DNA of 64,000 nucleotides from a virus. The stretch spans positions 64,001 to 128,000 of IMG/VR virus record IMGVR_UViG_3300017991_000003; one strand, written 5' to 3'. Shown piece by piece: positions 4,428 to 56,962 of the stretch. A program made the position numbers and the translations under genes. The stretch's first letter is position 1; each line of letters opens with the position of its first letter. The notes below the pieces were generated by a model. That model saw only the letters and a program-made list of their open reading frames with translations, did not search any database and was not told the origin of the DNA.

Positions 4428-4486
4428 GAATCAGATAGGAGCAGGGCCTGGTGTACATGAGACTCATGCCACACCAGGCCCTCGCG

Positions 4487-26265: not shown

Positions 26266-26733
26266 CTAGCCGCGCTCCTTGACGGGGACCTTCATGATGA
26301 GGACGTCGCCCTCCTTGAGGGTCATCCCGTCGGTCACCTCCTGGCCGCCGATGTGCGGCTTCGACCCCTCGGGGGTGCCGAAGCGGCGAGCGTACTCGGT
26401 CCGCGCGTCGGCGACCGAGGTGCCGGCGGCGACGTTGAGGCGGCCGGGCTCGCCCAGACCGTCGGTGGCCGCGGCGGTGACCGTGGCGACCGGACCCGCC
26501 TGCGGGGTCTCCTGGGTCGTCGGCGCCGTCGTGGCGGTGGGAGCGGTGCGCGTCACGGCGACGGCCACCTCGGTGTCCGTGGGCAGACCCGTGGTCTGGT
26601 CCCACTTGGTCGGATCCGAGTGGTCGACCTCGTAGAGCACGGGGTTGCCGGCCGCGTCGTTCGCGGGGGAGTCGGCGTAGCGGATGCGACGGTTGAGGGT
26701 GTCGAACGCGGGGCGCTTGATGTTTCCGGTCAT
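26266..26733 (-). CDS. small protein with candidate ThiS/MoaD-like beta-grasp (ubiquitin-like) C-terminal domain
   Basis: 155 aa; C-terminal ...IGGQEVTDGMTLKEGDVLIMKVPVKERG resembles ThiS/MoaD but ends RG, not GG; last gene of the RT-JAB-E1 operon. Confidence 0.4.
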   Translation of the reverse strand: MTGNIKRPAFDTLNRRIRYADSPANDAAGNPVLYEVDHSDPTKWDQTTGLPTDTEVAVAVTRTAPTATTAPTTQETPQAGPVATVTAAATDGLGEPGRLNVAAGTSVADARTEYARRFGTPEGSKPHIGGQEVTDGMTLKEGDVLIMKVPVKERG

Positions 26734-26756
26734 GGTGCAGAGGGTGTGTAGAGGGT

Positions 26757-27491: not shown

Positions 27492-27495
27492 GAGG

Positions 27496-29394
27496 TCAGG
27501 GGTAGATGGGGAGGGTGGCTTCTGTTTCGGACTTGTTGCAGAAGGCGATCTCCTCGAGGAGGACATCGTCTTCCATGTCGTCGGGGTCCTCGAGGACTCC
27601 GTCCATCTCGAGCACCAGTCGATCCATCTGATCGAGGATCTCTTGGTAGTCCTTGCGGTAGGGAATGCCGGCGTTCTGGGCCGCCTTGCGGACGACAAAG
27701 TAGGTCAGCCGGAACCACTCGAGCAGGACGCCGTCGGAGTCCTCTCGCGAGAATGCCTCGACGTAGCTCAGGTTGGTCTCGATCACGGTCTCGATCACGG
27801 TGTCGATCGACGTCTCGGGGAACACAGTTTTCACCGTCGGGTCGGCGTAGACGTATTTCGAGAGCTTGTCGATCCGGGCATCCAGTGCGATCGACTTGAA
27901 TAGCCGGTCGAGAAGGTCGTCGATGCGATTCATCACCTCGTCGATGACGTCTCGAACCAGCATGCTGTAGAGGGTCTGACGACTCTCGGATGCGCTGTTC
28001 TGCGCTTCTTCGACGATCTCTTCGATCGTGGGGGCGTTATCGAACCACTCACTGGTCGAGGCGTGGTTCATGAGCAGATGCAGGGCTAGGGCCGTAGCGT
28101 TGCTCGACGTCAGACTGTCCTTGAACGAGGTGCAGTACGCCCACACGGCTCGTGGGAAGGTCGTTTGCTGACCCTCCGCCTTCTTGATCAGCTGAAGGGG
28201 GTAGTGCGCTTGCGGTGAGATCACCATGCCGTAGAAGCCGGTGTGCATCCGCTGGATGCGGAACTTCTTATCAGCGACCAGCGAAGGGCCAGAGGCTGTC
28301 TTGCTGACAGGTACCAGTGAGGTAGTCGTCTTCTTCGTCGTCTGGCCAAGGCCACCCTGCGCCCCCGTACCCCCAGTCTTGCCGCCAGGAGTCGAAGGCG
28401 TACCCGCTTTGCCGCCGGTCCACTTTTTCGAGCCATAGCCGCCATACCTGCTGGTCTTGGCTTTCTTCTCCGCCTCCTTGATGGCCTCGCTGGCCAACTT
28501 GAACGTGGTAAGACAACGGGCGGCCTCGCCCATCCTGTCCTTCCAACGCCCCAGGCTTTCCATCGACCCACAGAAGGTCATCACAGTGCTCGTGTCGACG
28601 TCCTCGAGCTTGTCGACGCTGAGACCGACGGCGAGCTCGTCGGGATCGACCCCGGCCTTCAGCATGGCTTCGCACAGTCCGGGGTGGGCGACCCGGTTCA
28701 GCCACAGCTGAATCAGATCCAGGCCGCCCTCCACGAAAGGGATGTCGAACAACTCCTCGAGACCGGTCGCGTGGCGGATGCCCTGCGCCTTCTCGTTGCG
28801 GTAGCCGGGGAGGGCGGTGACGAACGACGGGCACACCGAGAAGGGCGGCTTGTCCACGTTCCCGAAGGTGATGTGGAAGCCCGTCTGGTTGAGCTCGTTG
28901 GCGTCGTCGGTCGAGCTGTGGTAGGCTCCACCAGCGCCGTGACTGTGCGCGGTGCCGACGCAGATGAACTCGACAAGCTCTCCATCCTCGCAGATGGGGC
29001 AAGCGTTGCCGGCTTCGAGCTCGATCGAGCCGATGCGACAGGTCGTGCAGAAGCTCTTGACGTTGGGATCGTACTTCACGTGCCCCGCGGAGGCGGTGTA
29101 CCACGGCGGACTGACGAGGGTGTAGGCGTCGTCGACCGGCCCTCGGTGGAAGAGCACGAAGGCCTCGGTCTTCCACAGGCGGTAGACCTCGGCGAAGTAG
29201 CGGTAGACGAACATCGTCTCCGCCATGGAGATCTTGGGCCAGTTGGTGAGGTCCAGGTCACGCTGGATCTGGTCGGTTTCACCGAGGTCCTCGGCCCGGG
29301 CGGGAACGAAGGCCTGAGCCCAGGCGGCCCCGCCTGGGCCGATGGTCTTCAGCACGTGGGCTTGGTTGCCCTTGTAGTAGATGTCGGTGGTCAT
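27496..29394 (-). CDS. JAB/JAMM (MPN+) metalloprotease-domain protein with N-terminal zinc ribbon and long C-terminal extension
   Basis: Exact JAMM motif HSHGAGGAYHSSTD (HxHx7Sx2D) after CTTC...CPIC; Gly/Lys-rich linker; ATG 29394 overlaps upstream stop (ATGA). Confidence 0.7.
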   Translation of the reverse strand: MTTDIYYKGNQAHVLKTIGPGGAAWAQAFVPARAEDLGETDQIQRDLDLTNWPKISMAETMFVYRYFAEVYRLWKTEAFVLFHRGPVDDAYTLVSPPWYTASAGHVKYDPNVKSFCTTCRIGSIELEAGNACPICEDGELVEFICVGTAHSHGAGGAYHSSTDDANELNQTGFHITFGNVDKPPFSVCPSFVTALPGYRNEKAQGIRHATGLEELFDIPFVEGGLDLIQLWLNRVAHPGLCEAMLKAGVDPDELAVGLSVDKLEDVDTSTVMTFCGSMESLGRWKDRMGEAARCLTTFKLASEAIKEAEKKAKTSRYGGYGSKKWTGGKAGTPSTPGGKTGGTGAQGGLGQTTKKTTTSLVPVSKTASGPSLVADKKFRIQRMHTGFYGMVISPQAHYPLQLIKKAEGQQTTFPRAVWAYCTSFKDSLTSSNATALALHLLMNHASTSEWFDNAPTIEEIVEEAQNSASESRQTLYSMLVRDVIDEVMNRIDDLLDRLFKSIALDARIDKLSKYVYADPTVKTVFPETSIDTVIETVIETNLSYVEAFSREDSDGVLLEWFRLTYFVVRKAAQNAGIPYRKDYQEILDQMDRLVLEMDGVLEDPDDMEDDVLLEEIAFCNKSETEATLPIYP

Positions 29395-29816
29395 GTGGTG
29401 ATCAGGGGTGGGTGGAATCGACGTAGGACGGTCAAGACCGCCTGGGTGTCTTCGTTGATGTCTTGCTCGGCTAGTAGGTGATCGAGCCGGCGCATCCAAT
29501 CACGTAGGGTCGTGAGCTGCTCGGGGCCCATGCTCGCCGGAGGGTCGACGACAGGACGTCGGTCGCTCTCGTCTCGGATCAAGTTGAAGCGGATGTTGTT
29601 GATCCTTCCACCGTCTAGCGCAACTGGATAGGTGCGTTGGAAGATCTGACCAAGAGCCTCGATCATCTCTCGAGTAAGACCCGTCCCCTCAAGATCGAGA
29701 AGGTGCGGTCGGTTCTCGAGGATCCGAGATAGAAGCTCCTCGCGTCTCCGGATAATGGCCTGGTGATCATTGTGTCGATCACGCGCGCCTTGCACGGTGT
29801 CCAGAATGGTGGTCAT
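29391..29816 (-). CDS. hypothetical protein (operon member, no Cys)
   Basis: ATG 29816 (MTTILDTVQ...) overlaps stop of upstream gene (ATGA); 141 aa. Confidence 0.5.
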   Translation of the reverse strand: MTTILDTVQGARDRHNDHQAIIRRREELLSRILENRPHLLDLEGTGLTREMIEALGQIFQRTYPVALDGGRINNIRFNLIRDESDRRPVVDPPASMGPEQLTTLRDWMRRLDHLLAEQDINEDTQAVLTVLRRFHPPLITT

Positions 29817-30655
29817 CGGACCACCTCTCGCCACTTCTCGGCCGCCGTACCGAGCTCCCGGCCCAGTACGATCTCATCGACGTCCGTCTGCCAGGTCATG
29901 ATGCGATCCTCGGTCCAGCGCTGCCATCGACAGAACTGCCAGAGCATGACAGTGTTCATGTTCAGGCCCAGATCACGCCGCCTGTCGTAGTCGGTGTAGT
30001 CACCTTCGGGGAGTTGCTCGAAGTACGGGACCTCTCGAAGCGCTTCGGGAACCTCAAACCCCTCAGGGAGCGGCCCGCTGAAAGGTGGCATGGTCAGGGA
30101 GTGCTCGTAGTGCGCGTTGTAGCCGGACTCGTTGATGAGCTTGAGGACCATCTCCGGGATCGACTGGAGCCCGTTGTACCGGTACTGGCGGAACACAGCA
30201 CCCGTGCACATGCCTCCCGTATCTTGCTGGTTCGGTAGGAATGATTTGTACAGAACCGGGGTGTACCCCGCCTCCAGATGCGGCTGCTGCTTGGTGAAGA
30301 AGCAGCGGGCATCGGAGAGGCGCCCGTCGTAGATCGAGATGATGAAGACGCGCGCAGGCATGGCGACCAGGAATCGAAGACCCTCCGGCCAGCCGCGGTT
30401 CTCGCGGACGTCGATGGAGATCCTCTCAGCCCGCGGAGGCACGACTGCCATGAAGTGCTCGTTGTGGGCATCCTTGGTGTGTGCCAGGATGTTTACGTAG
30501 GGGTGGTACGGAAAGAGGGCGCCAGCGCGCCGGCCTCGTTCCTCGAGGGCGGTCACGACGTCTTCTTCCCGCGTGATGCGGTTGACGTGAACCGTTTGAT
30601 GGATCACGTGACCATCGACGATGACGAGTCGATCGTGGGTTTCGAAGTTGGTCAT
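29813..30655 (-). CDS. hypothetical protein translationally coupled to the reverse transcriptase (candidate accessory/effector)
   Basis: 280 aa; ATG at 30655 overlaps RT stop at 30652 (ATGA); no recognised motif. Confidence 0.55.
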   Translation of the reverse strand: MTNFETHDRLVIVDGHVIHQTVHVNRITREEDVVTALEERGRRAGALFPYHPYVNILAHTKDAHNEHFMAVVPPRAERISIDVRENRGWPEGLRFLVAMPARVFIISIYDGRLSDARCFFTKQQPHLEAGYTPVLYKSFLPNQQDTGGMCTGAVFRQYRYNGLQSIPEMVLKLINESGYNAHYEHSLTMPPFSGPLPEGFEVPEALREVPYFEQLPEGDYTDYDRRRDLGLNMNTVMLWQFCRWQRWTEDRIMTWQTDVDEIVLGRELGTAAEKWREVVR

Positions 30656-31755
30656 GGGAGGTACGCGCGTGTCTCGGCGCTGTAGTTGGTGGGGGTGTTG
30701 TGGTGCACGTCTTGCGCGACACGCAGTTGTAGTTGGAGCGAGGCTCCTTGATCAGGGTTGATGAAGTTGACGTGGTTGACGAGGCCGGCGAGGTGGTCAA
30801 AGTTCACCGGCACAGGGCCTCGGTGCGTCAGCTCTCCCCCACGGGGACAGCGGCCGAAGTGCGCGTCGCAGATGATCTTGTGCAGCCGGGCGCGAAGCGC
30901 GCGCCGTCGAGGCCTGGGAGCGCTTAGCTTCTCGTTGACGACGACGCCGCAGACCGTCATGCGACTGCCGATGGAGCGGAATCGGATCTTTTCGGGGGCG
31001 ACCTTGTAGCCCAGCTTTTTCAGGAACCCGATGACGGGGTACTGGAACTGGTACAGCTTTCTGTAATCCGCCGTGAAGGTCATGTCGTCGCTATAGCGGG
31101 TGTACGCGATCGGCAGGAGTCTGATCTGAGTCTGCGTCTTTCGCCGGCGCTCTCCGTGGTTGTCGACCCACCGCATCGTGGGGTTGGTCCGCCAGGACTC
31201 GATCAGCTTCAGGATGCCGAAGTCCACCTGAGCCCCTGCCAGGTTGGAGAGGAAGGGGGACGTGGGGGCTCCTTGTGGTAGGCCACCATCCAAGAAGCAG
31301 GCGCGTTTGACTCTGTCAAGGAAGAGCCTGTCGGCACGTGACATCGGTTGCATGTACCCCCTGGTCAGGAAGTACTCCAGCTGCTCGAGGACGACGTGGG
31401 GAGACACGGACGGGAAGAAGTCCCGCAGATCGATGTCCAGCTTGTACCGGTGACCTACATGCGGGGCGGCGTTGGTGTGGATACCACGCTTGCGGACGTA
31501 GGCATGAGCTGCTGGGGAGGCCCCGATCCCGAGCGCTTTGAGCTCGCTGAGGATGAGCTTTTGAGCAGCCATTAGCTCCGGGCAAGGGATCTGGAGCTTT
31601 CGCATCTTCTGACGTGTCCGACCGTTCGAAAGCGTCTCGAGTACCGGGACTTCTCGACCATCCCGGGTACGCCTGGTCTTGGGGATTCGTGCGAATCGGT
31701 AGTGCTCAGCTTGAGCGGTGTCCGTCAGGACATTGAATGATGGGTAGCCAGCCAT
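30652..31755 (-). CDS. reverse transcriptase, retron-type
   Basis: 367 aa; RT motifs: HTNAAPHVGHRYKLDIDLRDFFPSV (NAxxH + motif 2), LPQGAPTSPFLSNL (QGxxxSP), YTRYSDDMTF (YxDD), TVCGVVVN (VTG-like); GAGGGT SD before ATG 31755. Confidence 0.85.
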   Translation of the reverse strand: MAGYPSFNVLTDTAQAEHYRFARIPKTRRTRDGREVPVLETLSNGRTRQKMRKLQIPCPELMAAQKLILSELKALGIGASPAAHAYVRKRGIHTNAAPHVGHRYKLDIDLRDFFPSVSPHVVLEQLEYFLTRGYMQPMSRADRLFLDRVKRACFLDGGLPQGAPTSPFLSNLAGAQVDFGILKLIESWRTNPTMRWVDNHGERRRKTQTQIRLLPIAYTRYSDDMTFTADYRKLYQFQYPVIGFLKKLGYKVAPEKIRFRSIGSRMTVCGVVVNEKLSAPRPRRRALRARLHKIICDAHFGRCPRGGELTHRGPVPVNFDHLAGLVNHVNFINPDQGASLQLQLRVAQDVHHNTPTNYSAETRAYLP

Positions 31756-31811
31756 GATCTACCCTCAGATGACGGCGCAGATTGCGCTCAAGGCAAGAAG
31801 TAGCATGTGCT

Positions 31812-32414
31812 TCACTCCGTGGTTTGAGGAAGTAGCGGGAGGTCCGCCTGGTGAAAGGCCTGGAAGATCGCCGAGGCGACGGTCTTCAGACGGCTTTCGA
31901 AGATCAGGTGGTCCGGGTGAGACATCTCCCCAGCGGGCGGGAGCTCTTTGAACAGCCGGTCGATGATGGCTACGAGCAGGTCGTTAGCGTCGGCCTGGCT
32001 GACCAGGAGGCTCCGGGGGCGGAGGTTGATGTTCAGATTGGAGGCTATGCCCCGTAGCACCGGTGGACGGGACCGGGCCGCGTGGACGGCGAAGGCGATT
32101 GAGGCTAGCCGGTGGTTGTTGTCGGCCGCAGACGGTGTGGTGGTGGCGGGGTTGTGCTTGCGGAGCGGGTCCGTGTCGGGGACCGGGTCGGGCAGCACCA
32201 GGGGACCTACGCCGTTTTTGGCCAATCGGTGGTAAAGGCTTAGAGCTGCCAAAGCCCCGAGTCCCATAGCCGGCAGCAATGCGCGGTTGGAGACTCGAGC
32301 GGGGCGTGGTGCGTCGACTGAGTCGGTCGACCACCAGGCGGACAGCCCTTCACGAACGGGCCCTTCATAGAGGGGCCACGTCTTCGTCAAGGCATCAATG
32401 ACGGGGACGTACAT
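31812..32414 (-). CDS. hypothetical protein (uncertain; region may instead be non-coding leader of the RT operon)
   Basis: 200-aa ORF with no Shine-Dalgarno before its ATG. Confidence 0.3.
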   Translation of the reverse strand: MYVPVIDALTKTWPLYEGPVREGLSAWWSTDSVDAPRPARVSNRALLPAMGLGALAALSLYHRLAKNGVGPLVLPDPVPDTDPLRKHNPATTTPSAADNNHRLASIAFAVHAARSRPPVLRGIASNLNINLRPRSLLVSQADANDLLVAIIDRLFKELPPAGEMSHPDHLIFESRLKTVASAIFQAFHQADLPLLPQTTE

Positions 32415-32549
32415 TCAGATCCGGATAGGGAGGTGGAGATGTGTTCGTGTCGGCAAACAGTGGCTCACAGGACTCATGCCATGTCTGTTAGGTCTTTTCA
32501 TGCGGGCCCCCAGGCGCTATCCTGAGCCTGTCAACAACTGGAGACGACC

Positions 32550-33218
32550 ATGTCGCAACGACCCACAGGTTCTCGCCCCGCCCCGCGCGGCTCGATGATG
32601 TCCGCTGACGCCGCTGCCGCCGACGTGCGGGCTCGGCAAGAAGCCGCAGCCCAGGAGCAGCTACAGCAGCAGGCCCAGGCGGCCAATGAGGCTCCCTCTG
32701 AGGAGCAGACCGAGCTCGACGAGGCCATCAGCTCCCAGATCCCCAAGGAGGTTCAAACCTCCCGCGGGATGCGCCCCTACGCCCAGTTCAAGAAGGAGTT
32801 CGACGAGGTCTATGAGCAGGTCCGTGACAAGGACCACCTGCTCTCTGGTCGAGTGACATACTCGACCGAGCTGGCTGGTCTTCCTATCACCATCCAGAGC
32901 CTGCGCCAACGGGACCGGCGGCTGCTGGCGGCCTGGGCCCCTGACGCCCGGGATGAGCATCGGGCATTCATGGATGGGGAGTTCCAGTACCGCTCCCGCC
33001 TGATGGTCCTGTCCCTGGTCCGGGTTGGGGATGTGGAGTTCCCGAGCCTGCCGATCAAGACGGATCCGGAATCTTGGGAGAAGCAGGACCCGATCCAGCA
33101 GGCCCTGTCCTACGTTGAAGACTGGGACGAGACCCTGTTCAACGTGATCTTCGGGCTCCTATCTGACCTCGAGACCGCCAAGCACTTCGCGCTGCTGGAG
33201 AACCTGGGAAACCCCTAG
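32550..33218 (+). CDS. hypothetical protein
   Basis: 222 aa; GGAGAC SD before ATG; Gln/Ala-rich N-terminus. Confidence 0.55.
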   Translation: MSQRPTGSRPAPRGSMMSADAAAADVRARQEAAAQEQLQQQAQAANEAPSEEQTELDEAISSQIPKEVQTSRGMRPYAQFKKEFDEVYEQVRDKDHLLSGRVTYSTELAGLPITIQSLRQRDRRLLAAWAPDARDEHRAFMDGEFQYRSRLMVLSLVRVGDVEFPSLPIKTDPESWEKQDPIQQALSYVEDWDETLFNVIFGLLSDLETAKHFALLENLGNP

Positions 33219-33265
33219 CCACCCCGCTCGCGTACTACCGAGTCCGCCTGCTGCTGCGGGGCGGG

Positions 33266-33559
33266 GTGGATCTAGCGGAGTTCTCCTTCCTCGAGCAGCA
33301 AGACTTCATCGAGTACGAGCGGAAGGAGCAGGCGATGCGGTTCGTCGAGCAGGCGACCCAGATCTACGCCACCGCCAAGGATACGGAAAGTGCTAAGGCC
33401 CTCGTTGAGCGGCTCCGGGAGGAGCTCTTCATCGGCCAGGCCCAGGCCAAAGCTGAGCGCACCAAGCGTCTGAGTGACGAGCTGGTCGAGGCGATCCACA
33501 AGACCTATTCGATCACTACGGCCGGCGGAGCCGCTATCCTTGAGGTGAGCAATGACTGA
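33266..33559 (+). CDS. hypothetical protein
   Basis: 97-aa helical acidic ORF. Confidence 0.45.
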   Translation: MDLAEFSFLEQQDFIEYERKEQAMRFVEQATQIYATAKDTESAKALVERLREELFIGQAQAKAERTKRLSDELVEAIHKTYSITTAGGAAILEVSND

Positions 33560-34112
33560 ATCTTTCACCTCCCAGGTCCTCCGGCAGACCATCAAGCAGG
33601 TGCGGGCCGGGTCTCGAGACCTGACCAGCACCCGGCTTGAGCCTTACTACCGAGGGACGCGGCGCCTCTCGGCGGAGGAGGTGGCCAGCCGAGCCGCGGC
33701 CTCGGCCGCTTTTCGGCAGGAGGCTGGATTCCGACCTCTCTCCACGGCTGAGGCGGCCCAGCAGATCGGGGACAGCGGGGGCCGGGCCCTGTTCCTGACC
33801 CTCATGAGCGGGCTGGGACTGGAGCGTGAGTACGACGAGGACGTCGTCTCTCAGGATGCTGTGGAGGGGGTCCCGGATCTCGGGGACCGGACGACCTTTG
33901 CGGACACCAAAGCCGCCTCAGGCGCCTCGCTGACGGTCCAGGAGGCCCGTGCCGGCCTGCGGGCGGTCGAGGGCCTAGCCAGCCGCCTCCCCACGGGCGG
34001 GCAGGTCAAGCACATCCTTGAGCCCGCGCAGCCGGCCCTGGCGGATGATGATTCCGTGGTCCAGGAGCGGCTCGAGAAGATGTGGGACTACGTCCGCGAC
34101 CTGTTGCCGTAG
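33552..34112 (+). CDS. hypothetical protein
   Basis: 186 aa; overlaps upstream by 8 nt. Confidence 0.5.
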   Translation: MTESFTSQVLRQTIKQVRAGSRDLTSTRLEPYYRGTRRLSAEEVASRAAASAAFRQEAGFRPLSTAEAAQQIGDSGGRALFLTLMSGLGLEREYDEDVVSQDAVEGVPDLGDRTTFADTKAASGASLTVQEARAGLRAVEGLASRLPTGGQVKHILEPAQPALADDDSVVQERLEKMWDYVRDLLP

Positions 34113-34192
34113 GTCCGGTCGGAGCGGGGGTTTATACTCCTAGCAGGCGTAGGAGCCGCTTCTCTGGCACTGGGTGCCAGTGCCAGTAAACC

Positions 34193-36247
34193 ATGCCCGA
34201 CCCCTATCCGAACCAGAACCAGGCGCTGTACGCCCTCCAGCAGCGGATCCAGGCCCAGCAGCAGCAGCAAATGCGGGCTGAGTCCATGGCCGTGGGGGGC
34301 ACGAACTCCATGGCCACTGAGTCCATGCGGGTCTCGATGATGCTGCAACAGCAGCAGCTTCAGCTCCAGATGCAGCAGCAGATGCAGCAGCTGCGCTCGT
34401 CCATGTACGGGACGTTCACGGCTGGGGCGGGCGCCGCATCCCCGGTCATGCGCCAGAACTTCGGCTCTCTGGTGATGGGGGCTGGGGTGGCTCGGGGCGT
34501 CAACACGATGACCGGCGGGCTCCTATACCCGGACTACAACTACCATTGGGGCCTCACCCGGGCTCGGATGGAGCAGGACGCGTCGGACGAGCTCCGTCAG
34601 CGGATGTTCAGCGATGTCGGGAACGAGTTGATCGCTGGCCTGGTCCCGGACGTGATCCGACGCCGGACCGGGGCGGCCTTCGCAGGCTCGAGGCCTGAGT
34701 TTGTGCGGGCAGCTTATGCTCGCTACTCCGGTTTGCGGGGCGGGGACGTGGCCGCGTTCGGCGGTGGAGGTAACGTTGACGGACCTGGTCTGCGATTGCG
34801 GGCTGACGCGACACAGAGCTCAGCGCGGGCGTTCGAGGCCGGGCTTTTGAACCTCAACCGCCGGCTTGGGTATGCCCTCGGTAGCGATGAGGTGAGCATG
34901 CTCCAGGACGTCACGGCAGGCCTCTCGGTCCACCAGGCCTTCCGAGGTCAGCGCGCTGGGGAGTCGGTCCTTGCCTCGGATAACCGCCAGGTTCAGAGCC
35001 TGATTAGCAGCATTCATGACCTGAGTCGTGCTCTCCAGCTGAACGTTGATCAAACGCGCGAGATGGTGAACATGGGCCGGCAGCACGGCTTGATGCCTAA
35101 CAGCTCGGCGTTCCAGGCTCTGGGAGCCATCGGCCAGGGCGGAAACCTGATCCAGATGAGCAACGCGGATCGGGCCCGGTACGCTATGCCGATCATGGCT
35201 CAGGCCCGCGGGATGGGCATGGACGCGGTCACCGCAGTCAACCGGCGGTTCGGTAGTGCGGAGGGCGTCCTAGGCCGCTACCGGGCTGGCCTCATGTCTG
35301 ATGCGCAGCTGTTCCGATTCGGCGGGACCAGTGAGGACGACGCCGCGATGCGCGTCGCGGAGTATCAAGAGCGGCTCGGTCTGGGATACGCCTCGCGGTT
35401 CGGAGGCAGTCTTGGGGCACTCTCCTATGCGGGGCAGTCTGTCGGAGGTGCTATCAGCACCGGGGCCCGGTTGGGTGCGGTTCTTGGATCCAACCCTCTG
35501 GCAGGTTTGCGTGCTTCTATGAGTGGGGCGGTGCGCTCGAACATGGCAGGCTCGATGCAGATGGATGCTTACGCCTATGCGCAGGATGCCTACCGCATCG
35601 GCGAATCGATTCAACCGGGCGGCGGTGAGGTACTTGCCGCTCGAGTATTCGGCCAGATGATCGGTGAGTCTGACCCGGTTCAGGCTATGAACATGTATCG
35701 GCAAATTGCCGGTGAGGTCGGCGCTGTCCAGCGTGGTACGTCGCTCAGTGGGGCAGAGTCTCTGCGGTTTGTCCGTACCCGTCGAATGATGCAGCAGGTG
35801 ACCGGCGAAGCCCCGGATATGTTGGATACAGCTAGGCTGTATCAATCTTTGGCGGGACGGGATGTGACCGCGGTGAGTGTTGCCCGGGCGCTAGCCCTCT
35901 CGGGAGCAGGCAGCAACACGCAGACGTCGCGCGAGTCTATCAACAGTGGCTATCGACAGGCGTCCGTGGATAAGTTCCGAAAGCTGATTACGGGACAGAC
36001 GGATCCGTCGCTCCTAGCCGTGATTGCCGAGATCTCCAACCTAGATGGGACGGGACTATCGGTGGATGTTCTTCAGGACATGGCCATCAACAAGAACAGC
36101 TCTGGGTGGAACACCGACGCTGTCAGTGTTCGGGAGCTCCTGACGATGGATCAGTTCCTCGGTAACTTTGGGAAGATCAACAAGAACCCAGACAAGCCCC
36201 CGAGCGGGACTGAGAACAATCCGATCTACGTGAAGACGGTGAGCTGA
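34193..36247 (+). CDS. large hypothetical protein (possible virion or internal protein)
   Basis: 684 aa; Gln-rich N-terminus (QQQQLQLQMQQQMQQ), Gly/Ala/Ser-rich body; ATG 34193. Confidence 0.6.
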   Translation: MPDPYPNQNQALYALQQRIQAQQQQQMRAESMAVGGTNSMATESMRVSMMLQQQQLQLQMQQQMQQLRSSMYGTFTAGAGAASPVMRQNFGSLVMGAGVARGVNTMTGGLLYPDYNYHWGLTRARMEQDASDELRQRMFSDVGNELIAGLVPDVIRRRTGAAFAGSRPEFVRAAYARYSGLRGGDVAAFGGGGNVDGPGLRLRADATQSSARAFEAGLLNLNRRLGYALGSDEVSMLQDVTAGLSVHQAFRGQRAGESVLASDNRQVQSLISSIHDLSRALQLNVDQTREMVNMGRQHGLMPNSSAFQALGAIGQGGNLIQMSNADRARYAMPIMAQARGMGMDAVTAVNRRFGSAEGVLGRYRAGLMSDAQLFRFGGTSEDDAAMRVAEYQERLGLGYASRFGGSLGALSYAGQSVGGAISTGARLGAVLGSNPLAGLRASMSGAVRSNMAGSMQMDAYAYAQDAYRIGESIQPGGGEVLAARVFGQMIGESDPVQAMNMYRQIAGEVGAVQRGTSLSGAESLRFVRTRRMMQQVTGEAPDMLDTARLYQSLAGRDVTAVSVARALALSGAGSNTQTSRESINSGYRQASVDKFRKLITGQTDPSLLAVIAEISNLDGTGLSVDVLQDMAINKNSSGWNTDAVSVRELLTMDQFLGNFGKINKNPDKPPSGTENNPIYVKTVS

Positions 36248-36948
36248 TGGGGAGCATCGACGACGTCCTGTCTGGCACCGGCCCCGACGATACGGATCTG
36301 ACCCAGGGTCCGCAGGTGTCGAGCTCGGATGATTACGAGATCGTGCTTGGGTACGATCCTGCGGATTATCGCCACCTGGGTGCGGCGATGGGGGCGGAGT
36401 ACGACAAGGTCCCTGCCACGCTGGTAGTTCGCGACATCGGAGACGCGGCCACGGCGCAGGAAGGGATCATCGATGCAGCCAGCACAGCGTTGGCTCAAGT
36501 ACTGCCCTTCCCGCTCGGTCTGGTAGCTAATGCTGGGCTCGAGATCGCGCTCTCGCCGATCGTATTCATCACAGACAAGCTGATCCTTACCAGCGCGGTC
36601 GAGCCTCGCAGCGCCCGATCGGCTATGGTGATGAGCTTCAATCAGCCGACGGTCTACACGTCGGGCATGCAGCCCTACATTTTCCGGTACGCGGGTCACG
36701 TGTTGATCAACGAGCTGGATGGGGACGGGCGCAACCAGTTCTACGCTGCCTACCGGGAGTACCTGCGCGCCTCAGCTAGCCTGGTCGGGGCGGAGCGGCA
36801 GACCATGCCGTGGGTCGTAGAGCTCACCTTCCGAGATATGTTCCGCGCCGGGTATGTGGTCGACCTGTCGATGTCGATCAACGCAGCAGAGCCTAGCAAG
36901 GCTGACATCTCGTTCACCCTCTTCGTGATCGATGACCGGTTCTCCTGA
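36247..36948 (+). CDS. hypothetical protein
   Basis: 233 aa; TGATG coupling to upstream gene. Confidence 0.55.
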   Translation: MGSIDDVLSGTGPDDTDLTQGPQVSSSDDYEIVLGYDPADYRHLGAAMGAEYDKVPATLVVRDIGDAATAQEGIIDAASTALAQVLPFPLGLVANAGLEIALSPIVFITDKLILTSAVEPRSARSAMVMSFNQPTVYTSGMQPYIFRYAGHVLINELDGDGRNQFYAAYREYLRASASLVGAERQTMPWVVELTFRDMFRAGYVVDLSMSINAAEPSKADISFTLFVIDDRFS

Positions 36949-37502
36949 TGGCCTTTGAACCTCGAGACACCGAGCTGCGGGAGCGCTTCGGCGAACAGGC
37001 CCAGGAGCTCTACGAGGGCGACCGGGCGGCTGTCCGTGTCTTCCCCCTGGATGCGACAGGGGCTCTGGTTTTGACCAATCCGGTGGCCGAGTTCGATCAG
37101 CTCTTGATCGGACGAGTCGAGGAGCCGGATCGGGAGCGGGTGCAGTACAGCCAGTCGTTTGACGGCAACAAGCTCTACGCCTACGGCAACGATCACCGGG
37201 TCTATGCGATCTCCGCGGCCTTGCTCGATACGGACCTGGGGACGACGATTCAACCCCCATCAGGCAGCGAGGCGAGCGCGTGGGAAGGGCGCGGGCATCG
37301 TGACTGGGTGCAGTTCTTCGAGCAGTACGCTAGTCTGTGGGCATGCGCTCGGGATCGTCTGCTGGTCCAGCTGACCTACGGTCGGCGCCAAGTCTACGGG
37401 GCCTTCCTTGAGTCGACGCCCAACCTCGTGGCCTCAGCGCCGCACCGGCTGGATCTCCTGCTCTCCTTTTACGTGACCCACAGTCAGCCCATCGAGTTCT
37501 GA
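36948..37502 (+). CDS. hypothetical protein
   Basis: 184 aa; TGATG coupling. Confidence 0.55.
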   Translation: MAFEPRDTELRERFGEQAQELYEGDRAAVRVFPLDATGALVLTNPVAEFDQLLIGRVEEPDRERVQYSQSFDGNKLYAYGNDHRVYAISAALLDTDLGTTIQPPSGSEASAWEGRGHRDWVQFFEQYASLWACARDRLLVQLTYGRRQVYGAFLESTPNLVASAPHRLDLLLSFYVTHSQPIEF

Positions 37503-40500
37503 TGACTGCCGAGACCCGAGCCGGCCTCCTAGCATCCCAGTGGAAGATCTTTCTGGATGGCGTGGAGGTTCCGCACCATGGGTTCAGCATGGTCATGTCT
37601 CAGGATCAGGTCAGCGAGGTGATGCTGAGCCTGGAGCCGGACAAGATCCTGCTCGAGCTTCGGCCGCAGACGATGGTGCACATCTTCGCCAAAGATCGAT
37701 TCCCTGACCCGGCTCCTGGGCAGGAGGATGAGGAAGGTGGTGTGCAGTTTGCCAAGACCTATACCTCGGACGAGGACGAGCTCAAGGACACGTGGCACCT
37801 GTTCTGGGAGGGCGTGGCCGCTGGGCGCACCCACCAGAAATCCAAGGGCAATAGGTCCATCCAGGTTCGAGCACGAGCCTTGGTAGAGAGCCTAGAGCGC
37901 ACCCCGGCCTTCATGATGGGTATGGGAGGGATCGAGTACAGCTCTATTGCTTCCGGCAGCCGACTGCCTGCGACTGTGGCGGGTGTGATCGAGGGCGGCG
38001 GGCCTTCGTCGGTAGACACGCTCAGCCTGTTCACGCTGGCGGATCTCTTCACTAACGACGGGGAGACCGGTTCCGATGTTCCTGGCCGTGATAGCGCTAC
38101 TCCGCGGTTCGCTGAGCGCTTGATCCGCTTGATCACCTACCTCAGTAGTTACAACGGGGTGCTACGTCAGCACGTGGTCCGTGGCCGGCTCCTGAACAAG
38201 ATCGCGTCTATCCCGGATAGCATCCTCGAAGGGATCCTCGAACGATCTGTGGGCCTGAGCCTGCTGGGCGACATGCAGAACCGAATCACGTCGCGCAGCT
38301 CGGTGCTCGACATCATTCGGCAGGTGATGTCCTATGGGTTCTATCACCTGGTCCAGGTCCCTATGCCTTACCGGCCGAGTAAGCAGCCGGAGATGGGATC
38401 GATGATCCCTACTCTGACCGGGAAGCAGGATGAGGAGCAGGCTACCGCCCACCAGATTCCCTACGAGTACTACCGGAACGACTACGTGTTCGTGCCGGAG
38501 ACGTACTACGCGCTGCCGCCTCCGTGCAACTTCGTGTTCCCGGATGAGATGGCAGACCTGTCCATCGGGCGGGAGTTCCAGTCGGAGCCGACGCGGCACC
38601 TGGTACAGGACCCGCACCTAGCCTCCTTCGTTGGTAACTTCTTCTACTGGCTGGCTCCTGAGGACATCATCCGCAAGGCGCGGGAGGGTGCTGGTGATGA
38701 CGTGACCTCGGCGAACCTCTTCGCCATGGCGTCCACGTTTGGCCGCTCGATCAACGTGAGCGGGGCCACGTCACCGTACGCATACCCGGACTCCGCCGAC
38801 TTGGAGAGCGGGTCGGTGCGTAGCCTCCTTGGCGCTGTATCGGACCTAGAGCTGGAGAAGGGTATTGTCCCGAGCTTCGGGCAGAACCGGTTCGAAGCCT
38901 TGGCAGCCGCGGCGTACCTGAGCCGCACAATCCCACGCACGGAGGACCAGGCCACGGCCCAGTCGATCGAAGACTTTGCTAACCCGGAAAATGCTGCGTA
39001 CGCCGACCTGATGGCGGCGGTGGCTAACTACCAGCTTCAGCTGATGCGCTACCGGCGCCAGGGCCAGGTCTCGATGCTTGGGCACCGGTGGATCATCCCC
39101 GGGCTTCCAACCATCATCTTCGACTCGGACATCTCGTACTTTGGTCAGGTCGTGTCGACCACCTTCGTGGTCAACTCTGATGGCCAGGAGTCGACGACTC
39201 TTCAGCTGGATCGTACTCGGCCTGTTCCGAAGATGGAGATCGAGGAGATCCGAGCCGCGCTCGAGGGCCTCTCCACGAAGCTCCAAGAGCTGCAAACCCA
39301 GAAGAGCAAGGTTGCGGACCAGGCGCTGGGGCAGACGATCTCCTCGGCGCTCTCAGGCCCCCTCGCGTCTCAGACTACGCAGTACGGCGGGCTGGGCGCC
39401 AAGATCGAGCAGACTCAGTCCGCGCTCCAGAACTGGAACACGTACATCGGTGGAGATACCGTCGACCTGGTTACGACGACGGGCGCTCCGATCCAGGAGA
39501 CTCTGACGATTGAGGGCACGCAGTTCGATGGGACCGGCTTGACGACCTACTTCCAGGACCTATCGACGGAGGCTGCGGAGATTCAAGCAGGCCTGGATGA
39601 GCTTCTGGTCGATGGGGCGGCTGTCGCAAAGGCTCTCAATACTGGGGAGATCGCTGTTGGCGGATCTGCTTTCTCCACGACCCTGACCAAAGGTGACCAG
39701 ACCATCTACGCGGCGGGCAATGTCAGTCCAGCGTACTTGGCATACCTGTTCCTCGACGTCCCGGTCCTGGTTGATACGACTGGGCAGATCACAGCAGCCA
39801 AGGCGGCGTTGGGTGACGGCTTCTCGGTGTCGGGACTCAAGAGCGCGCTAGGCTCCATTGTCAACGGCGGCGCCTCCAGCGACGTGTTTACAGGTGGCGA
39901 GGCCCCGAACACCGTGGCCGGTGCCCTCGCGGTCCTGACCGTGGCGGCGACGTACTACGAGCTGGCCACGGCGGCGATTGTCGAGTGGCTTACGATTCAG
40001 AAGGACATCGCAGATTCTGGCGAGAACTTGGACTTCCTCGATCTCCCGCCCTCGACCCAGGCTGCGGCTGATCAATCCTACAAAGACCAGTACCAGACGA
40101 TCGTCGACACACTGACGAATGAGATCATCGAGGACGGCCAGAAGGTCCTTGAGGACTTCGATACCCGCTTGGACTGGCCGGCGCCCCCGGCCTTCTTCTC
40201 TGAGGACTTGATTGCCACGGAGAAGTTGGATGACCTGTACCAGACCTCTTTCGGATGTAAGCCGTTCTACACCGGCCCGTACACGGCGACAGCAACGAAC
40301 GAGACTGTAGCGGCCATCCGAGCATCCTTGACTGAGTTGGATCTTGGGGAGCTTGAGACTGAGTCGGGCCTGAGTATGCAGGATCGACTGGAGTACTACC
40401 TCGAGTATCTGTCCGGGGTCTCGGCGTTGAACAACGTCTACCCCATCCTGGAAGGGCAGGAGGAGCTGACGGACGACGTGGCCCCGCCGCCTAGCTGGCA

Positions 40501-40981
40501 TGACGTGGCGGCAGCTGGTGGTGGGCAGGCCACGCCTTTCGAGTGGGCGCATCGGACGTTCCTCAAACGAGAGGCCACGAGCTTGGGGCAGTTCCTCGAG
40601 GATCACAAGCTCGAGCTCGTGACGCAGTTTGCCGACCGACCCACCACCAAGGAGTTCTATCAGATGCGTCCGGTCTCAGGATCGCAGACGACAACCGGAG
40701 CTGGGCTGGTATTCGACGATAGCCTCTTCAGTAAGCTGGTGGATGAGAAGAAGATGACCAACCCTGCATCCACTGTGGTTAGTGATGTTCTTGAGCAGGT
40801 TCTTCCTGGACCCTTCAACGCGGTGGCCGCCTCCGCGGTAGACGCGGCTTCAAGCGATCCATTGATCCAGGAGGCTCGAGAGCAGGCCACCAACAAGTAC
40901 CTGACCACTCAAGCACGGCAGGAGTTGATCCTGTCCTATGCCCGCAAGCACTTCGGCGACCGAGGTTTCGATGGCACGTGA
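37502..40981 (+). CDS. very large hypothetical protein (possible virion structural protein)
   Basis: 1159 aa uninterrupted ORF; TGATG coupling; no catalytic motif recognised. Confidence 0.65.
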   Translation: MTAETRAGLLASQWKIFLDGVEVPHHGFSMVMSQDQVSEVMLSLEPDKILLELRPQTMVHIFAKDRFPDPAPGQEDEEGGVQFAKTYTSDEDELKDTWHLFWEGVAAGRTHQKSKGNRSIQVRARALVESLERTPAFMMGMGGIEYSSIASGSRLPATVAGVIEGGGPSSVDTLSLFTLADLFTNDGETGSDVPGRDSATPRFAERLIRLITYLSSYNGVLRQHVVRGRLLNKIASIPDSILEGILERSVGLSLLGDMQNRITSRSSVLDIIRQVMSYGFYHLVQVPMPYRPSKQPEMGSMIPTLTGKQDEEQATAHQIPYEYYRNDYVFVPETYYALPPPCNFVFPDEMADLSIGREFQSEPTRHLVQDPHLASFVGNFFYWLAPEDIIRKAREGAGDDVTSANLFAMASTFGRSINVSGATSPYAYPDSADLESGSVRSLLGAVSDLELEKGIVPSFGQNRFEALAAAAYLSRTIPRTEDQATAQSIEDFANPENAAYADLMAAVANYQLQLMRYRRQGQVSMLGHRWIIPGLPTIIFDSDISYFGQVVSTTFVVNSDGQESTTLQLDRTRPVPKMEIEEIRAALEGLSTKLQELQTQKSKVADQALGQTISSALSGPLASQTTQYGGLGAKIEQTQSALQNWNTYIGGDTVDLVTTTGAPIQETLTIEGTQFDGTGLTTYFQDLSTEAAEIQAGLDELLVDGAAVAKALNTGEIAVGGSAFSTTLTKGDQTIYAAGNVSPAYLAYLFLDVPVLVDTTGQITAAKAALGDGFSVSGLKSALGSIVNGGASSDVFTGGEAPNTVAGALAVLTVAATYYELATAAIVEWLTIQKDIADSGENLDFLDLPPSTQAAADQSYKDQYQTIVDTLTNEIIEDGQKVLEDFDTRLDWPAPPAFFSEDLIATEKLDDLYQTSFGCKPFYTGPYTATATNETVAAIRASLTELDLGELETESGLSMQDRLEYYLEYLSGVSALNNVYPILEGQEELTDDVAPPPSWHDVAAAGGGQATPFEWAHRTFLKREATSLGQFLEDHKLELVTQFADRPTTKEFYQMRPVSGSQTTTGAGLVFDDSLFSKLVDEKKMTNPASTVVSDVLEQVLPGPFNAVAASAVDAASSDPLIQEAREQATNKYLTTQARQELILSYARKHFGDRGFDGT

Positions 40982-41711
40982 TACGACTGATCGGCCGAGT
41001 AAGGCCATCCGAGACGCCCGGAAGGATACCGATCTAGGTCTGGTAGAGCGGGCGCAGAAGGGCGACAAGGAGGCGCTGAACCGGCTGATCCGTAGCCACA
41101 TGGATCTGATCCAGATGAAGGCCCGCGGGTTCCGTAACGCCCCCATCCCAATCGCGGCGATCGAGGGTGAGGGTATGCGGCTTCTGGCTTTGGCGGTTAC
41201 CAAGTTCGACCCGTCCCAGGGTGTGGCCTTCCGCACGTTCCTCGACAACTACCTGCGCGGGCTCTACCGCTACGTCAACAGCAACAAGCGCGTGGACCGG
41301 GCGCCGGAGCACAGGCACCTGCGCTTCCACCGGTACGAGGCGGTCAAGGGCCTCCTGCGGGTGGAGCATAGTCGAGAGCCCACGGTGGCCGAGCTCTCCG
41401 ATGCGTTGGGCTGGAGCCCTACGGATGTGAAGCAGATGGACCGGATGATGTCCCAGCGTAGCCTGGCGGGCAGCGGCCTCGAGAACGTCAAGGCACTGGA
41501 CCAAGCGCACAGCCGGTACCAGGAGTCGGTTGAGCTGGCGTACGCGGGGTGGACCAAGCAGCAGCAGGCTGTCTACGATCTCAGCATGGGCGCGCACGGT
41601 AAGCAGCGCCTATCATCTGTGCCGGCCATCGCCCGCACCCTTGGGATCACGGCCGACAAGGTCTACAAGATCAAGCGGGAGCTGGCCCAGGAGCTTGGTA
41701 GTTCCCTATGA
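40971..41711 (+). CDS. sigma-70-family RNA polymerase sigma factor
   Basis: ATG 40971 (MARDTTDR...) overlaps end of upstream gene; region 2-like (LVERAQKGDKEALNRLIRSHMDLIQ) and C-terminal region 4 HTH-like (SVPAIARTLGITADKVYKIKRELAQEL). Confidence 0.7.
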   Translation: MARDTTDRPSKAIRDARKDTDLGLVERAQKGDKEALNRLIRSHMDLIQMKARGFRNAPIPIAAIEGEGMRLLALAVTKFDPSQGVAFRTFLDNYLRGLYRYVNSNKRVDRAPEHRHLRFHRYEAVKGLLRVEHSREPTVAELSDALGWSPTDVKQMDRMMSQRSLAGSGLENVKALDQAHSRYQESVELAYAGWTKQQQAVYDLSMGAHGKQRLSSVPAIARTLGITADKVYKIKRELAQELGSSL

Positions 41712-42019
41712 GGATTCAGGACACACCAGAGAGTCTGCGCTTCAGTCACGTCCGCCGGCGGCCTCGATCCGAGTGGCCGAACAACTGGCTCAAGGGCGGG
41801 TCGGAGCCCGGCGACATCATGCTGCTCGAGGGAGACTGGGGGAAGATCGGCGGCATCCTCTGCTTGACCAAGACAGGGCGCTACATGGCGTTGACCGTGG
41901 CCCAGGTCTTCGAAGGCGCTGAGATCGAGTGGCCTGAGCCGGGGGCTGCCTTCTCGATTCACCTCATCGGCGACGCCGTCCAGCTAAAAGTAAAAGAAGA
42001 GCCCGAAGGCCCTTCCTGA
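41708..42019 (+). CDS. hypothetical protein
   Basis: 103 aa; 4-nt overlap with sigma factor gene. Confidence 0.45.
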   Translation: MRIQDTPESLRFSHVRRRPRSEWPNNWLKGGSEPGDIMLLEGDWGKIGGILCLTKTGRYMALTVAQVFEGAEIEWPEPGAAFSIHLIGDAVQLKVKEEPEGPS

Positions 42020-42033: not shown

Positions 42034-42252
42034 TCACAGGTCGCGGACGGTGAACCCGTACTGCTGGAACGTGGACCAAGTGTACGGGCTTGCCGTGCGT
42101 TCGGCCCAGTGCTTGGAGCAGTAGTAGGTCGTCTCGGTCCGGGTCAGTGCCTTAGTGGCCGGGGCATCGCACCGACCGCAGGGGATGCTGGCCCCGCCGC
42201 AGCTGGTGGCGACTAGCACGAGGAGCGCGAGCGTGGTGAGGAATCGTCGCAT
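42034..42252 (-). CDS. small putative lipoprotein
   Basis: Track ORF trimmed to ATG 42252 (MRRFLTTLALLVLVATSCGG...); signal peptide with lipobox-like VATSC. Confidence 0.4.
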   Translation of the reverse strand: MRRFLTTLALLVLVATSCGGASIPCGRCDAPATKALTRTETTYYCSKHWAERTASPYTWSTFQQYGFTVRDL

Positions 42253-42337
42253 GACTATGTCGGGTGAGGGTGGTGGTTGGGGTATACACTCCCCAGTCAC
42301 CATACTCATGCCCGACAGGCTCGCCGCTCTTGCTGGT

Positions 42338-44348: not shown

Positions 44349-44463
44349 GGTGGTTGTGGGTGGTTGAGGCTCCTGTGAGCCAAATCGGGGTTCAGGGGAC
44401 TCATGACTGATTTCACCAGGAATGTAGGAGAGGCTTGCAGGCCGGGCCCACTTCGGCCTATGC

Positions 44464-44487
44464 TTGACATGTCGCCACTGTGACGAC
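44464..44487 (+). promoter_or_regulatory. TTGACA -35-like hexamer followed by an imperfect 17-bp palindrome (possible promoter/operator)
   Basis: TTGACA at 44464-44469; gtcgccactgtgacgac 14/17 palindromic; no clear -10 hexamer found. Confidence 0.25.
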
Positions 44488-51352: not shown

Positions 51353-51488
51353 GATGGGTGTTGATGTTGGGTGGTGCAGCGGATCTAGCCCCGTCTGGGC
51401 TGGAAAGATCCCCCGCTCACCAGACTCTTGCCACACAGCCCCCTGTTTTTGGCTTTCTAGGTACCACCAGGAGGCCTAAACTGGCTGT

Positions 51489-52918: not shown

Positions 52919-52970
52919 GGGTGGTGTGATGGTGGTGGGGTGAAACGGATCGTCACCCTACTTATGCCAC

Positions 52971-53935: not shown

Positions 53936-53981
53936 GGTGGTTGTAGGGGGTAAAGGGGGCGCGTCACTGGACTTATGACCC

Positions 53982-56886: not shown

Positions 56887-56962
56887 GAGTCAGATCGGTC
56901 ATGAGTCCTATGAGGCCACCGGTGTTGATCACATCCCTAGGCCACACCCGAACTAGGTGAGA

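Follow-up and report, generated by a model that had tools for sequence, protein, structure and literature searches.

In this study we analyzed a 64,000-nt stretch of viral DNA (positions 64,001 to 128,000 of the IMG/VR virus record IMGVR_UViG_3300017991_000003; hereafter the window) that encodes a predicted sigma-70-family sigma factor, and compared it with related phage loci, designated L004, L007 and so on. The sigma gene (Table 1) lies within the plus-strand open reading frame (ORF) 40938-41711. Homologue alignment and public gene calls favor the ATG at 40971 as its start codon, and a GAGG is located 6-9 nt 5' of it. The codon-position GC content of the ORF (0.65/0.44/0.82) follows the pattern of the other long, real genes in the window, which has a GC content of 62%. 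An identical sigma factor occurs on contigs of up to 193 kb and on IMGVR_UViG_3300018080_003942. The phage genome measures about 175 kb, of which we examined 82 kb (the window plus two 10-kb flanks) and about 92 kb lies outside.

The sigma gene is the fifth of six packed ORFs at 34193-42019, which encode 684, 233, 184, 1159, 246, and 103 amino acids (aa) and overlap by 1, 1, 1, 11, and 4 nt, respectively. An earlier note, made from the letters of the sequence, had described the sigma start as overlapping the last codons of the 1159-aa gene, and we find the same: the overlap is 11 nt, with the TGA stop of the 1159-aa gene at 40979-40981. The note had also placed the sigma gene at the end of a coupled operon of very large proteins. 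The tightly packed block of large proteins is indeed there, but the sigma gene is followed by the 103-aa ORF and is thus not its last gene. "Co-translated", the word used in the note, is better put as co-transcribed and probably translationally coupled: given the stop/start overlap and the gene's own GAGG, synthesis of the sigma factor probably depends on translation of the preceding gene.

Several types of comparison identify the protein as a sigma factor. Domain sigma3 is recognized by Pfam Sigma70_r3 at 30.8 bits (curated cut-off 25.3), and domain sigma2 by the colinear alignment of residues 24-157 with the RpoS, RpoH, and SigA structures (E 4e-9). NCBIfam sigma models match at E 4e-12 to 1e-9, with the RpoS, RpoH, SigF, and FliA models at E 1e-11 to 1e-9; model positions 63-292 of 298 in TIGR02997 align colinearly with residues 23-237, and NF005642 spans residues 26-242. 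PHROG 351, annotated as "RNA polymerase sigma factor", covers residues 24-240 at E 8e-19. Sigma chains in the PDB are matched at E 4e-9 with the single sequence (RpoS) and at 3e-11 with the family profile. A few of these profile alignments reach region 4, among them those to M. tuberculosis SigB and an RpoD, ending at profile positions 235 and 233. An AlphaFold (AF2) model built from six family members has an overall pLDDT (predicted local distance difference test) score of 75 and consists of three helical domains, each at about 80-90, joined by low-confidence linkers at residues 108-113 and 162-177. The sigma3 helices (residues 115-161) are predicted at a pLDDT of about 80-87 and the C-terminal helices (196-206, 217-224, and 228-245) at 85-90. 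In a Foldseek search of this model against the PDB, the top 50 matches all came from sigma-factor entries, aligned over about 220-270 columns, and nearly all were sigma chains (sigmaS, sigmaA, sigma32, and sigmaB) in holoenzyme or initiation complexes; with whole sigmaS, sigmaA, and sigma32 chains the alignment runs over about 230-270 columns. The presence of domain sigma4 thus follows from the colinear full-length models, PHROG 351, the profile alignments, the predicted helices, and the Foldseek matches taken together. With sigma3 present, the protein differs from extracytoplasmic function (ECF, group 4) sigma factors, which have sigma2 and sigma4 only.

Three results weigh against this assignment. 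Pfam Sigma70_r2 stays sub-threshold (E 0.026, 14.8 bits versus 24), the Pfam search of the sigma protein returned no region 4 match, and all 25 NCBIfam models listed score far under their own cut-offs (best 46 bits versus 384). The profile check that the earlier note had proposed for regions 2 and 4 therefore gave a mixed outcome: Pfam fell short for both, but full-length models extend into the C-terminal helix-turn-helix (HTH). No other HTH family outscores the sigma match in the Pfam search, so neither of the two outcomes that would have told against a sigma factor, failure of the profiles or a match to another HTH family, was seen, and the note's family assignment stands on the Pfam region 3, NCBIfam, PHROG, PDB, and AlphaFold/Foldseek evidence. 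Since every NCBIfam score is far under its cut-off, the protein belongs to none of the named subfamilies (RpoS, RpoH, SigB/F/G, FliA, cyanobacterial group 2). We conclude that 40971-41711 almost certainly encodes a functional sigma-70-family sigma factor with a sigma2-sigma3-sigma4, group-3-like layout, carried by a tailed phage of about 175-193 kb.

The protein retains the core-binding region 2.2 motif. In E. coli sigma70 numbering, F427 and T429 are kept, Y430 is replaced by F, W433 by N, W434 by Y, Q437 by G, and T440 by Y. The equivalent of H455 (within PEH) is kept in most members of the family alignment. Because of the region 2.3/2.4 changes W433N, W434Y, Q437G, and T440Y, a -10 specificity unlike that of a primary sigma factor is expected. 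By analogy with the known function of the family, the predicted role is binding of core RNA polymerase and promoter-specific initiation.

The neighbor upstream is a baseplate hub candidate. Sequence searches of Pfam, PHROG, and the PDB returned no match for the 684-, 233-, 184-, and 1159-aa proteins. A structure model of residues 1-580 of the 1159-aa protein has a pLDDT of only 45 overall and contains confident beta-rich segments; Foldseek against viral models matches it to gpD/late control D, baseplate hub, and tail lysin proteins, and tandem beta-barrel domains of the hub fold are recognizable. Its first ~575 residues are homologous to the protein encoded 5' of sigma in L018 (E 4e-24), L021 (5e-9), and L011 (1e-10). 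The L021 homologue contains a lytic transglycosylase (SLT) domain, and the L021 sigma gene is followed by genes for an amidase-domain protein and then a gp25-like wedge protein. Blocks in other relatives encode gp6-like wedge subunits, tail sheath, and tail proteins. The hub fold and the neighbors in these distant relatives lead us to read the block as a tail/baseplate module with the 1159-aa protein as its hub. The predicted fold also supports the suggestion in the earlier note that the large proteins are probably structural. Compared with known hubs (T4 gp27, Mu gp44, P2 gpD, siphophage Tal, and VgrG), the 1159-aa protein has no sequence-level match, carries a C-terminal extension of about 580 aa, and has a model of low overall confidence.

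Upstream of the hub, the 684-aa ORF is possibly a tape-measure protein, judged by its position, size, and composition, and a large ORF (653-1019 aa) occupies its position in L004, L008, L009, and L013-L016. Several relatives likewise have ORFs of similar size to the 233-/184-aa pair. Downstream, an orthologue of the 103-aa ORF lies immediately 3' of sigma in the window and in L004, L007, L008, L010, L013, and L017; in L009 it is found one gene further on, behind a 243-aa Metallophos protein. This ORF is thus kept in eight lineages, with the motifs WP..WL, PG..L.L.G.WG..GG.L, and Q.F....I.W. It could be a partner or regulator of the sigma factor. Eight family members gave no Pfam match, and no PHROG or PDB match was found (best PDB profile match E 0.015); with this outcome an anti-sigma function is unsupported.

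The sigma gene lies behind the hub gene, overlapping it, and this placement is conserved across a wide clade. Homologues with 81-45% identity, together with more distant ones (down to about 25%) from viral and genome collections, are carried by contigs of 45-200 kb. We examined the sigma neighborhood in 20 related lineages. Sigma comes directly after an ORF of 746-1166 aa in L004, L007-L011, L013, L014, L016, L018, and L021-L025, with a gap or overlap of at most 14 nt in these lineages and in the window. In L015 a 1109-aa ORF ends at the sigma match, the start of which is not resolved there. The exceptions are L017, L019, and L026, with an ORF of 220-354 aa 5' of sigma, and L020 and L027, in which an ORF scan found no ORF of at least 150 aa ending within 250 nt of sigma. 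In L021-L025 sigma is located between the hub and wedge genes. An exhaustive profile search recovered 41 cluster representatives (clusters at 50% identity) at E<=1e-30, 1,362 at E<=1e-10, and 17,467 at E<=0.001. Of the top 150, which extend to E about 4e-22, nearly all match the sigma profile end to end. Placement of sigma after the hub dates back to the common ancestor of a broad clade of large uncultivated phages, and these sigma factors of about 230-250 aa form a sizeable, unnamed family.

In its domains the protein is a sigma-70 factor, and by analogy it would work like the known phage sigma factors, which include SPO1 gp28 and gp34, T4 gp55, and phiEco32 gp36. Phage sigma factors are an established device for reprogramming the host polymerase, so the gene itself is no surprise. 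What is unusual is its fixed location, a sigma gene tied to a baseplate hub gene across very divergent genomes, and a shallow literature search found no description of such an arrangement. With the bacterial group 3 factors (RpoH, SigB/F/G, FliA) and group 2 RpoS it shares a length of about 250 aa, the sigma2-sigma3-sigma4 order, colinear alignment, the region 2.2 core-binding motif, and the C-terminal HTH. It differs from them in its low identity (23-25% in Foldseek alignments, and below every NCBIfam cut-off), in the N, Y, G, and Y at sigma70 positions W433, W434, Q437, and T440, and in being encoded by a phage within a tail module. Like SPO1 gp28/gp34, phage K gp117, T4 gp55, and the sigma factors of "group 2" jumbo phages, it is a phage-carried sigma of a kind with which lytic phages redirect polymerase; unlike T4 gp55 it has sigma3 and sigma4, its conserved position directly after a baseplate hub gene is one for which we found no description, and its candidate -10 element is CATRAG. 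According to Iyer et al. (2021, PMC7824862), RNA polymerase is absent from "group 2" jumbo phages, which have sigma factors, some of them RpoD-like, whereas phiKZ-type (group 1) jumbo phages yielded no sigma factor. Among the genes shared by a metagenomic lineage of large aquatic phages there is likewise a sigma factor, and that lineage lacks a polymerase (PMC12619734). Our analysis adds the hub identity of the neighbor, the conserved unit of hub, sigma, and small ORF, two classes of promoter candidates, and a link to a fused beta-beta' polymerase in remote relatives.

The first of these classes, class A, looks like promoters of the primary host sigma factor. TATNCT occurs in 28 copies, of which eight are intergenic, while 8% of the window is intergenic. 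Comparing the window with L004 (76% sigma identity), TATNCT sites are kept at four syntenic positions although the spacers have diverged, and two of these sites have good -35 boxes at canonical spacing. The one that heads the sigma block (32495-32523) corresponds in L004 to TTTTCT, 17 nt, and TATGCT; the one at 44435-44464 corresponds to TTGCAA, 18 nt, and TATGCT. A canonical promoter scan over 31.5-46 kb gave 0 matches at threshold and is uninformative in GC-rich DNA. The divergent region upstream of the block could not be aligned with L008 and L009, the sequences being too diverged.

The second class, class B, is represented by CATGAGTC, or GGCATRAGT, the only non-terminator word enriched in the intergenic DNA of the window. 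Its fuller pattern is GGCATRAGT-N3-RTGA. In the relaxed form GKCAWRAGT it has 10 copies in the window versus 2.8 expected, a number that none of 100 shuffles reached, and 8 of the 10 fall within the roughly 8% of the window that is non-coding. The motif recurs at syntenic sites of L004 and L008 and is also present in L007, L010, L013, and the flank L237. Four copies (4462, 42304, 52960, and L237 18027) are located between co-directional genes and thereby fix the orientation of the motif; read this way, each of the window's eight intergenic copies, like the L237 copy, has a start codon 34-117 nt downstream. At 32472 the motif and the class A promoter heading the sigma operon stand back-to-back; this class B copy is conserved at the syntenic positions in L004 and L008.

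Aligned with one another, 17 copies display a weak A-rich nCnAAA, 17 nt ending in TGG, then CATRAGT, three variable bases, and a conserved TGA. This would be consistent with a sigma-70-type promoter in which we infer the A-rich patch to be a weak -35, CATRAG the -10 element, and the 17 nt between them a spacer whose TG resembles an extended -10. Compared with what is expected of such a promoter (-35 and -10 elements 16-18 nt apart, a start 6-8 nt past the -10, and a gene downstream on that strand), the overall geometry of the 17-copy alignment and the orientation of the eight intergenic copies would agree, but the -35 patch is weak and the pattern was defined post hoc. The hexamer keeps A-11 and has C at -12 and G at -7, with a pyrimidine-purine step at the predicted start. 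Primary sigma factors require T at -12 and -7, and G at -7 is expected to be disliked, which makes CATRAG with C at -12 and G at -7 a testable prediction. The units behind class B are the leftward operon with reverse transcriptase (RT), JAB, and ThiF genes, a 72-aa lipoprotein gene, the rightward exonuclease operon, and five leftward units, each with between one and four small ORFs (4345, 44348, 51352, 52918, and 53935). No class B copy precedes the tail block.

We also considered other readings of the motif itself. A sigma54 element (TGGCA...) was rejected given that GT replaces GG in 4 of the 10 copies in the window, and the ATG inside the motif is out of frame with the downstream ORFs and would not serve as start codon. 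Class B as a -35 element is less likely, as starts 34-41 nt downstream (53971, 52960, and L237 18027) would leave no leader. Separately, genes behind class B (42252, 44348, 51352, 52918, and 53935, and L237 17992) have C/A-rich leaders without a purine-rich ribosome binding site: ACAACCACC-ATG occurs twice, and CACACCACCC-ATG and CCACCTACCC-ATG are also found. Across the whole window, only about one gene in four has a Shine-Dalgarno-like motif. These leaders suggest that class B genes may use a second translation-initiation mode that does not involve a Shine-Dalgarno sequence.

Together, these observations suggest the following scheme, which as a whole we consider somewhat more probable than its failure. 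Host RNA polymerase with the primary sigma factor would transcribe the sigma block from the canonical promoter at 32495-32523; this is the most likely origin of the transcript, and we hold it with moderate confidence. The phage sigma factor would then displace the host sigma from the RNA polymerase core and steer the core to phage-specific promoters. That it works with the host core is probable, going by the known function of the family. The best candidate targets would be the class B sites, before seven leftward units and the exonuclease operon, an assignment that we put forward tentatively and at somewhat less than even strength. The expectation in the earlier note that a private sigma factor implies phage-specific promoters, which it could not identify by eye, is in this way partly met: the intergenic word search yielded a candidate motif, and its connection to the sigma factor is our reading of the pattern.

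Several points count against this scheme. What ties class B to the sigma factor consists solely of exclusion, class A being host-like, and geometry. The class B pattern was refined on the same copies on which it was tested, so its statistics are inflated; what supports it independently is its conservation in relatives and its consistent geometry. No copy was found in 20 kb of L014-L017, in which sigma is 40-43% identical. If the tail/baseplate operon is late, a sigma factor expressed from it would come late as well, which is odd for a switch factor; the operon may not be late, class B units may be expressed last, or the sigma factor may travel with the virion. Finally, two remote relatives encode a fused beta-beta' and our analysis covers 82 of about 175 kb, for which reason the host core is named here only as the probable partner enzyme.

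A possible but doubtful alternative is that class B is the operator of a phage regulator, or a promoter for an alternative host sigma factor, and that the phage sigma reads TATNCT or some other motif. At 34133 and 45348, and at the equivalent L004 sites, the TATNCT box lacks a -35 box at 17-18 nt and in this resembles the -10-only late promoters of phage K, whose gp117 is an SPO1 gp34-like sigma factor (PMC9241854). Four class B copies are situated in divergent regions, where operators are common. The A-rich -35 patch and the CAT core also loosely recall sigma32 promoters. The operator reading is countered by the fixed orientation of the motif with start codons 34-117 nt downstream, by the 17-nt distance from the A-rich patch and the TGA conserved where transcription is predicted to begin, which fit a promoter better, and by the lack of a palindrome in all copies except that at 4462.

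It is unlikely that the sigma factor serves a fused beta-beta' RNA polymerase encoded elsewhere in the phage genome instead of the host enzyme, an idea that comes from two remote relatives. In L011 (sigma 25% identical), the genes for a 746-aa hub and a 260-aa sigma are followed by an 845-aa ORF and then a gene for a 2120-aa protein, the C-terminal half of which matches bacterial beta' at E 6e-87; the protein also matches several phage RNA polymerase PHROGs. The L018 contig (sigma 34% identical) carries a 36%-identical copy of the L011 polymerase. For the phage studied here, tblastn with the L011 polymerase found no homologue in the window or in the relatives' loci searched with it, precomputed Pfam hits in the two 10-kb flanks included no RNA polymerase domain, and no phage RNA polymerase was seen in the window. 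A scan of the viral collection with an RNA polymerase family alignment hit no contig of close relatives, and two beta'-motif pattern scans of viral contigs gave no close-relative contig among the matches listed. Canonical promoters before several operons also argue for use of the host holoenzyme. The N4 virion RNA polymerase and the multisubunit RNA polymerases of phiKZ and AR9 are relevant only to such alternatives, in that L011 and L018 carry this sigma family together with beta-beta'. Polymerases of the phiKZ type are split and highly divergent; in contrast, the L011 polymerase is a single fused chain close to bacterial beta'. If the beta-beta' link extends to the clade of the window, the question becomes how phages assemble a holoenzyme of their own.

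The fused proteins themselves measure 2000-2120 aa and are encoded in L011 (13257-19616), in L029 (10001-15997, on the contig of L018), and in L030. The L011 polymerase gene is located two genes after sigma, inside the tail/baseplate block. Genes for beta' with the NADxDGDTM motif are common on large IMG/VR contigs, at least 120 being found by pattern scan.

A sigma factor that is a virion protein, packaged or tail-associated and delivered with the DNA, so that class B sites would be early promoters read by host core with injected sigma, is very unlikely. Its attraction is the deep and stable embedding of sigma in the baseplate module, where in L021-L025 it even lies with the hub on one side and wedge genes on the other, along with the RNA polymerase gene in the same co-directional module of L011 and the presence of class B ahead of small ORFs and the RT/JAB/ThiF cluster, which resemble early or anti-defense cargo. 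Gene order by itself is weak evidence, however, neither Pfam nor the model shows a recognizable extra domain for virion association in the sigma factor, and we know of no precedent for an injected sigma. A bolder form of the idea, which we regard as distinctly unlikely, is that sigma is kept in the baseplate module as part of what the phage delivers. Synthesized along with the hub, it would travel in the virion and enter the cell by injection, and class B would be immediate-early promoters read by this phage-supplied sigma together with host core or, in L011-like relatives, with phage beta-beta'. If true, this would be the first virion-delivered sigma-70-family factor and, in the L011/L018 lineage, a phage-encoded minimal "bacterial" holoenzyme. 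A degenerate relic or decoy that binds core or DNA without initiation, for instance in host shut-off, is extremely unlikely: the sequence evidence is weak for region 4 and for Pfam region 2, and several sigma70 melting residues are replaced, but conservation runs end to end including the HTH (in the 41 representatives at E<=1e-30 and many beyond), all three domains are predicted at a pLDDT of about 80-90, and the region 2.2 motif is kept.

The remainder of the window bears out the phage origin assumed in the earlier note, through its gene content and its presence in IMG/VR. Replication genes, a tail-fiber-like ORF, and the hub fold on a viral contig are what is expected of a tailed-phage genome (Table 1). 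The window also encodes a DHH phosphoesterase, a destabilase-type lysozyme domain, and two exonucleases. Capsid, portal, and terminase genes were not seen among the 82 kb examined, no DNA similarity to known phages was found for the part of the window at 30-50 kb, and no tRNA or Rfam match was obtained in the whole window. Deposited phages include no close relative of the sigma factor, and its nearest phage database match is 24-29% identical.

Table 1. Genes and candidate promoter elements, in coordinates of the 64,000-nt window.
Feature	Position	Strand	Remarks
Class B motif GGCATGAGT	4462..4470	-	116 nt before 4345; flanking genes co-directional
Family A DNA polymerase (PolA)	4487-7027		
Toprim primase	8555-9634		
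1258-aa repeat-rich ORF	9633-13409		Tail-fiber PHROG matches
DnaB-type helicase	18199-19593		
O-like replication initiator ORF	21981-23402		
Class B motif GGCATGAGT	32472..32480	-	57 nt before 32414; leftward operon (200 aa, RT, JAB, ThiF)
Class A promoter candidate TTTTCA-17 nt-TATCCT	32495..32523	+	27 nt before start 32550; heads sigma block
First three ORFs of rightward block (222, 97, 186 aa)	32550..34112	+	Order kept in L004, L008, L009
-10-like box TATACT, possible internal promoter	34133..34138	+	80-nt gap before 684-aa ORF; L004 gap has TATAAT
684-aa ORF	34193..36247	+	Possible tape measure, from position before hub, length, and composition only
Two ORFs (233 + 184 aa)	36247..37502	+	Between 684-aa ORF and hub; joined by 1-nt overlaps
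Putative baseplate hub/tail-associated protein, 1159 aa	37502..40981	+	Predicted gp27/Mu gp44/P2 gpD fold, first ~575 aa
Sigma-70-family sigma factor, 246 aa	40971..41711	+	sigma2-sigma3-sigma4, without region 1.1
Conserved 103-aa ORF	41708..42019	+	4-nt overlap with sigma stop
Class B motif GGCATGAGT	42304..42312	-	51 nt before 72-aa lipoprotein gene (42252); flanking genes co-directional
Class B motif GTCATGAGT	44399..44407	-	50 nt before 44348; syntenic L004 copy GGCATAAGT
Class A promoter candidate TTGCAG-18 nt-TATGCT	44435..44464	+	Heads rightward operon 44529 onward
Class B motif GGCAAGAGT	51424..51432	-	71 nt before 51352
Class B motif GGCATAAGT	52960..52968	-	41 nt before 52918; flanking genes co-directional
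Class B motif GTCATAAGT	53971..53979	-	35 nt before ATG 53935
ThyX	55923-56864		
Class B motif GTCATGAGT	56898..56906	+	82 nt before exonuclease operon (56989 onward); only intergenic + copy

The leftward operon at 26266-32414 (minus strand), with a class B motif at its head, encodes a 200-aa protein, a reverse transcriptase (RVT_1, 30652-31755), proteins of 280, 147, and 155 aa, a 667-aa JAB-domain protein (27496-29499), and a ThiF/E1-like protein (26757-27698). RT, E1, and JAB enzymes together are unusual on a phage. A diversity-generating retroelement (DGR) was rejected as a reading of the reverse transcriptase, as no template/variable repeat pair was found anywhere in the window. The 72-aa ORF (42034-42252, minus strand) stands alone behind its class B motif and runs convergently toward the 3' end of the sigma operon. 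It has a lipoprotein-type signal, LVATSC, and could be a spanin or a superinfection-exclusion protein.

The stretch 25042-26265 comprises 1.2 kb without a credible ORF, about 1.6 kb from the O-like replication initiator ORF. It contains a 66-nt inverted repeat (86% complementary, 25114-25179/25240-25305) and, at 25443, 25789, and 26042, three exact copies of GGCGATGCGCCGC on the same strand, versus 0.34 expected, and is a candidate replication origin or regulatory region. The 1258-aa ORF starts 1-2 nt away from the primase gene, which is divergent to it. At 10.3-12.7 kb it has four to seven internal copies of repeats of about 90-215 nt (60-83% identical), and it reads as a modular repeat protein. 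A degenerate class B core, CCCATGAGTC, is found at 9460-9467 (plus strand) inside the primase gene, 165 nt 5' of the start of the tail-fiber operon and on the same strand, without the GG and the A-rich -35 patch.

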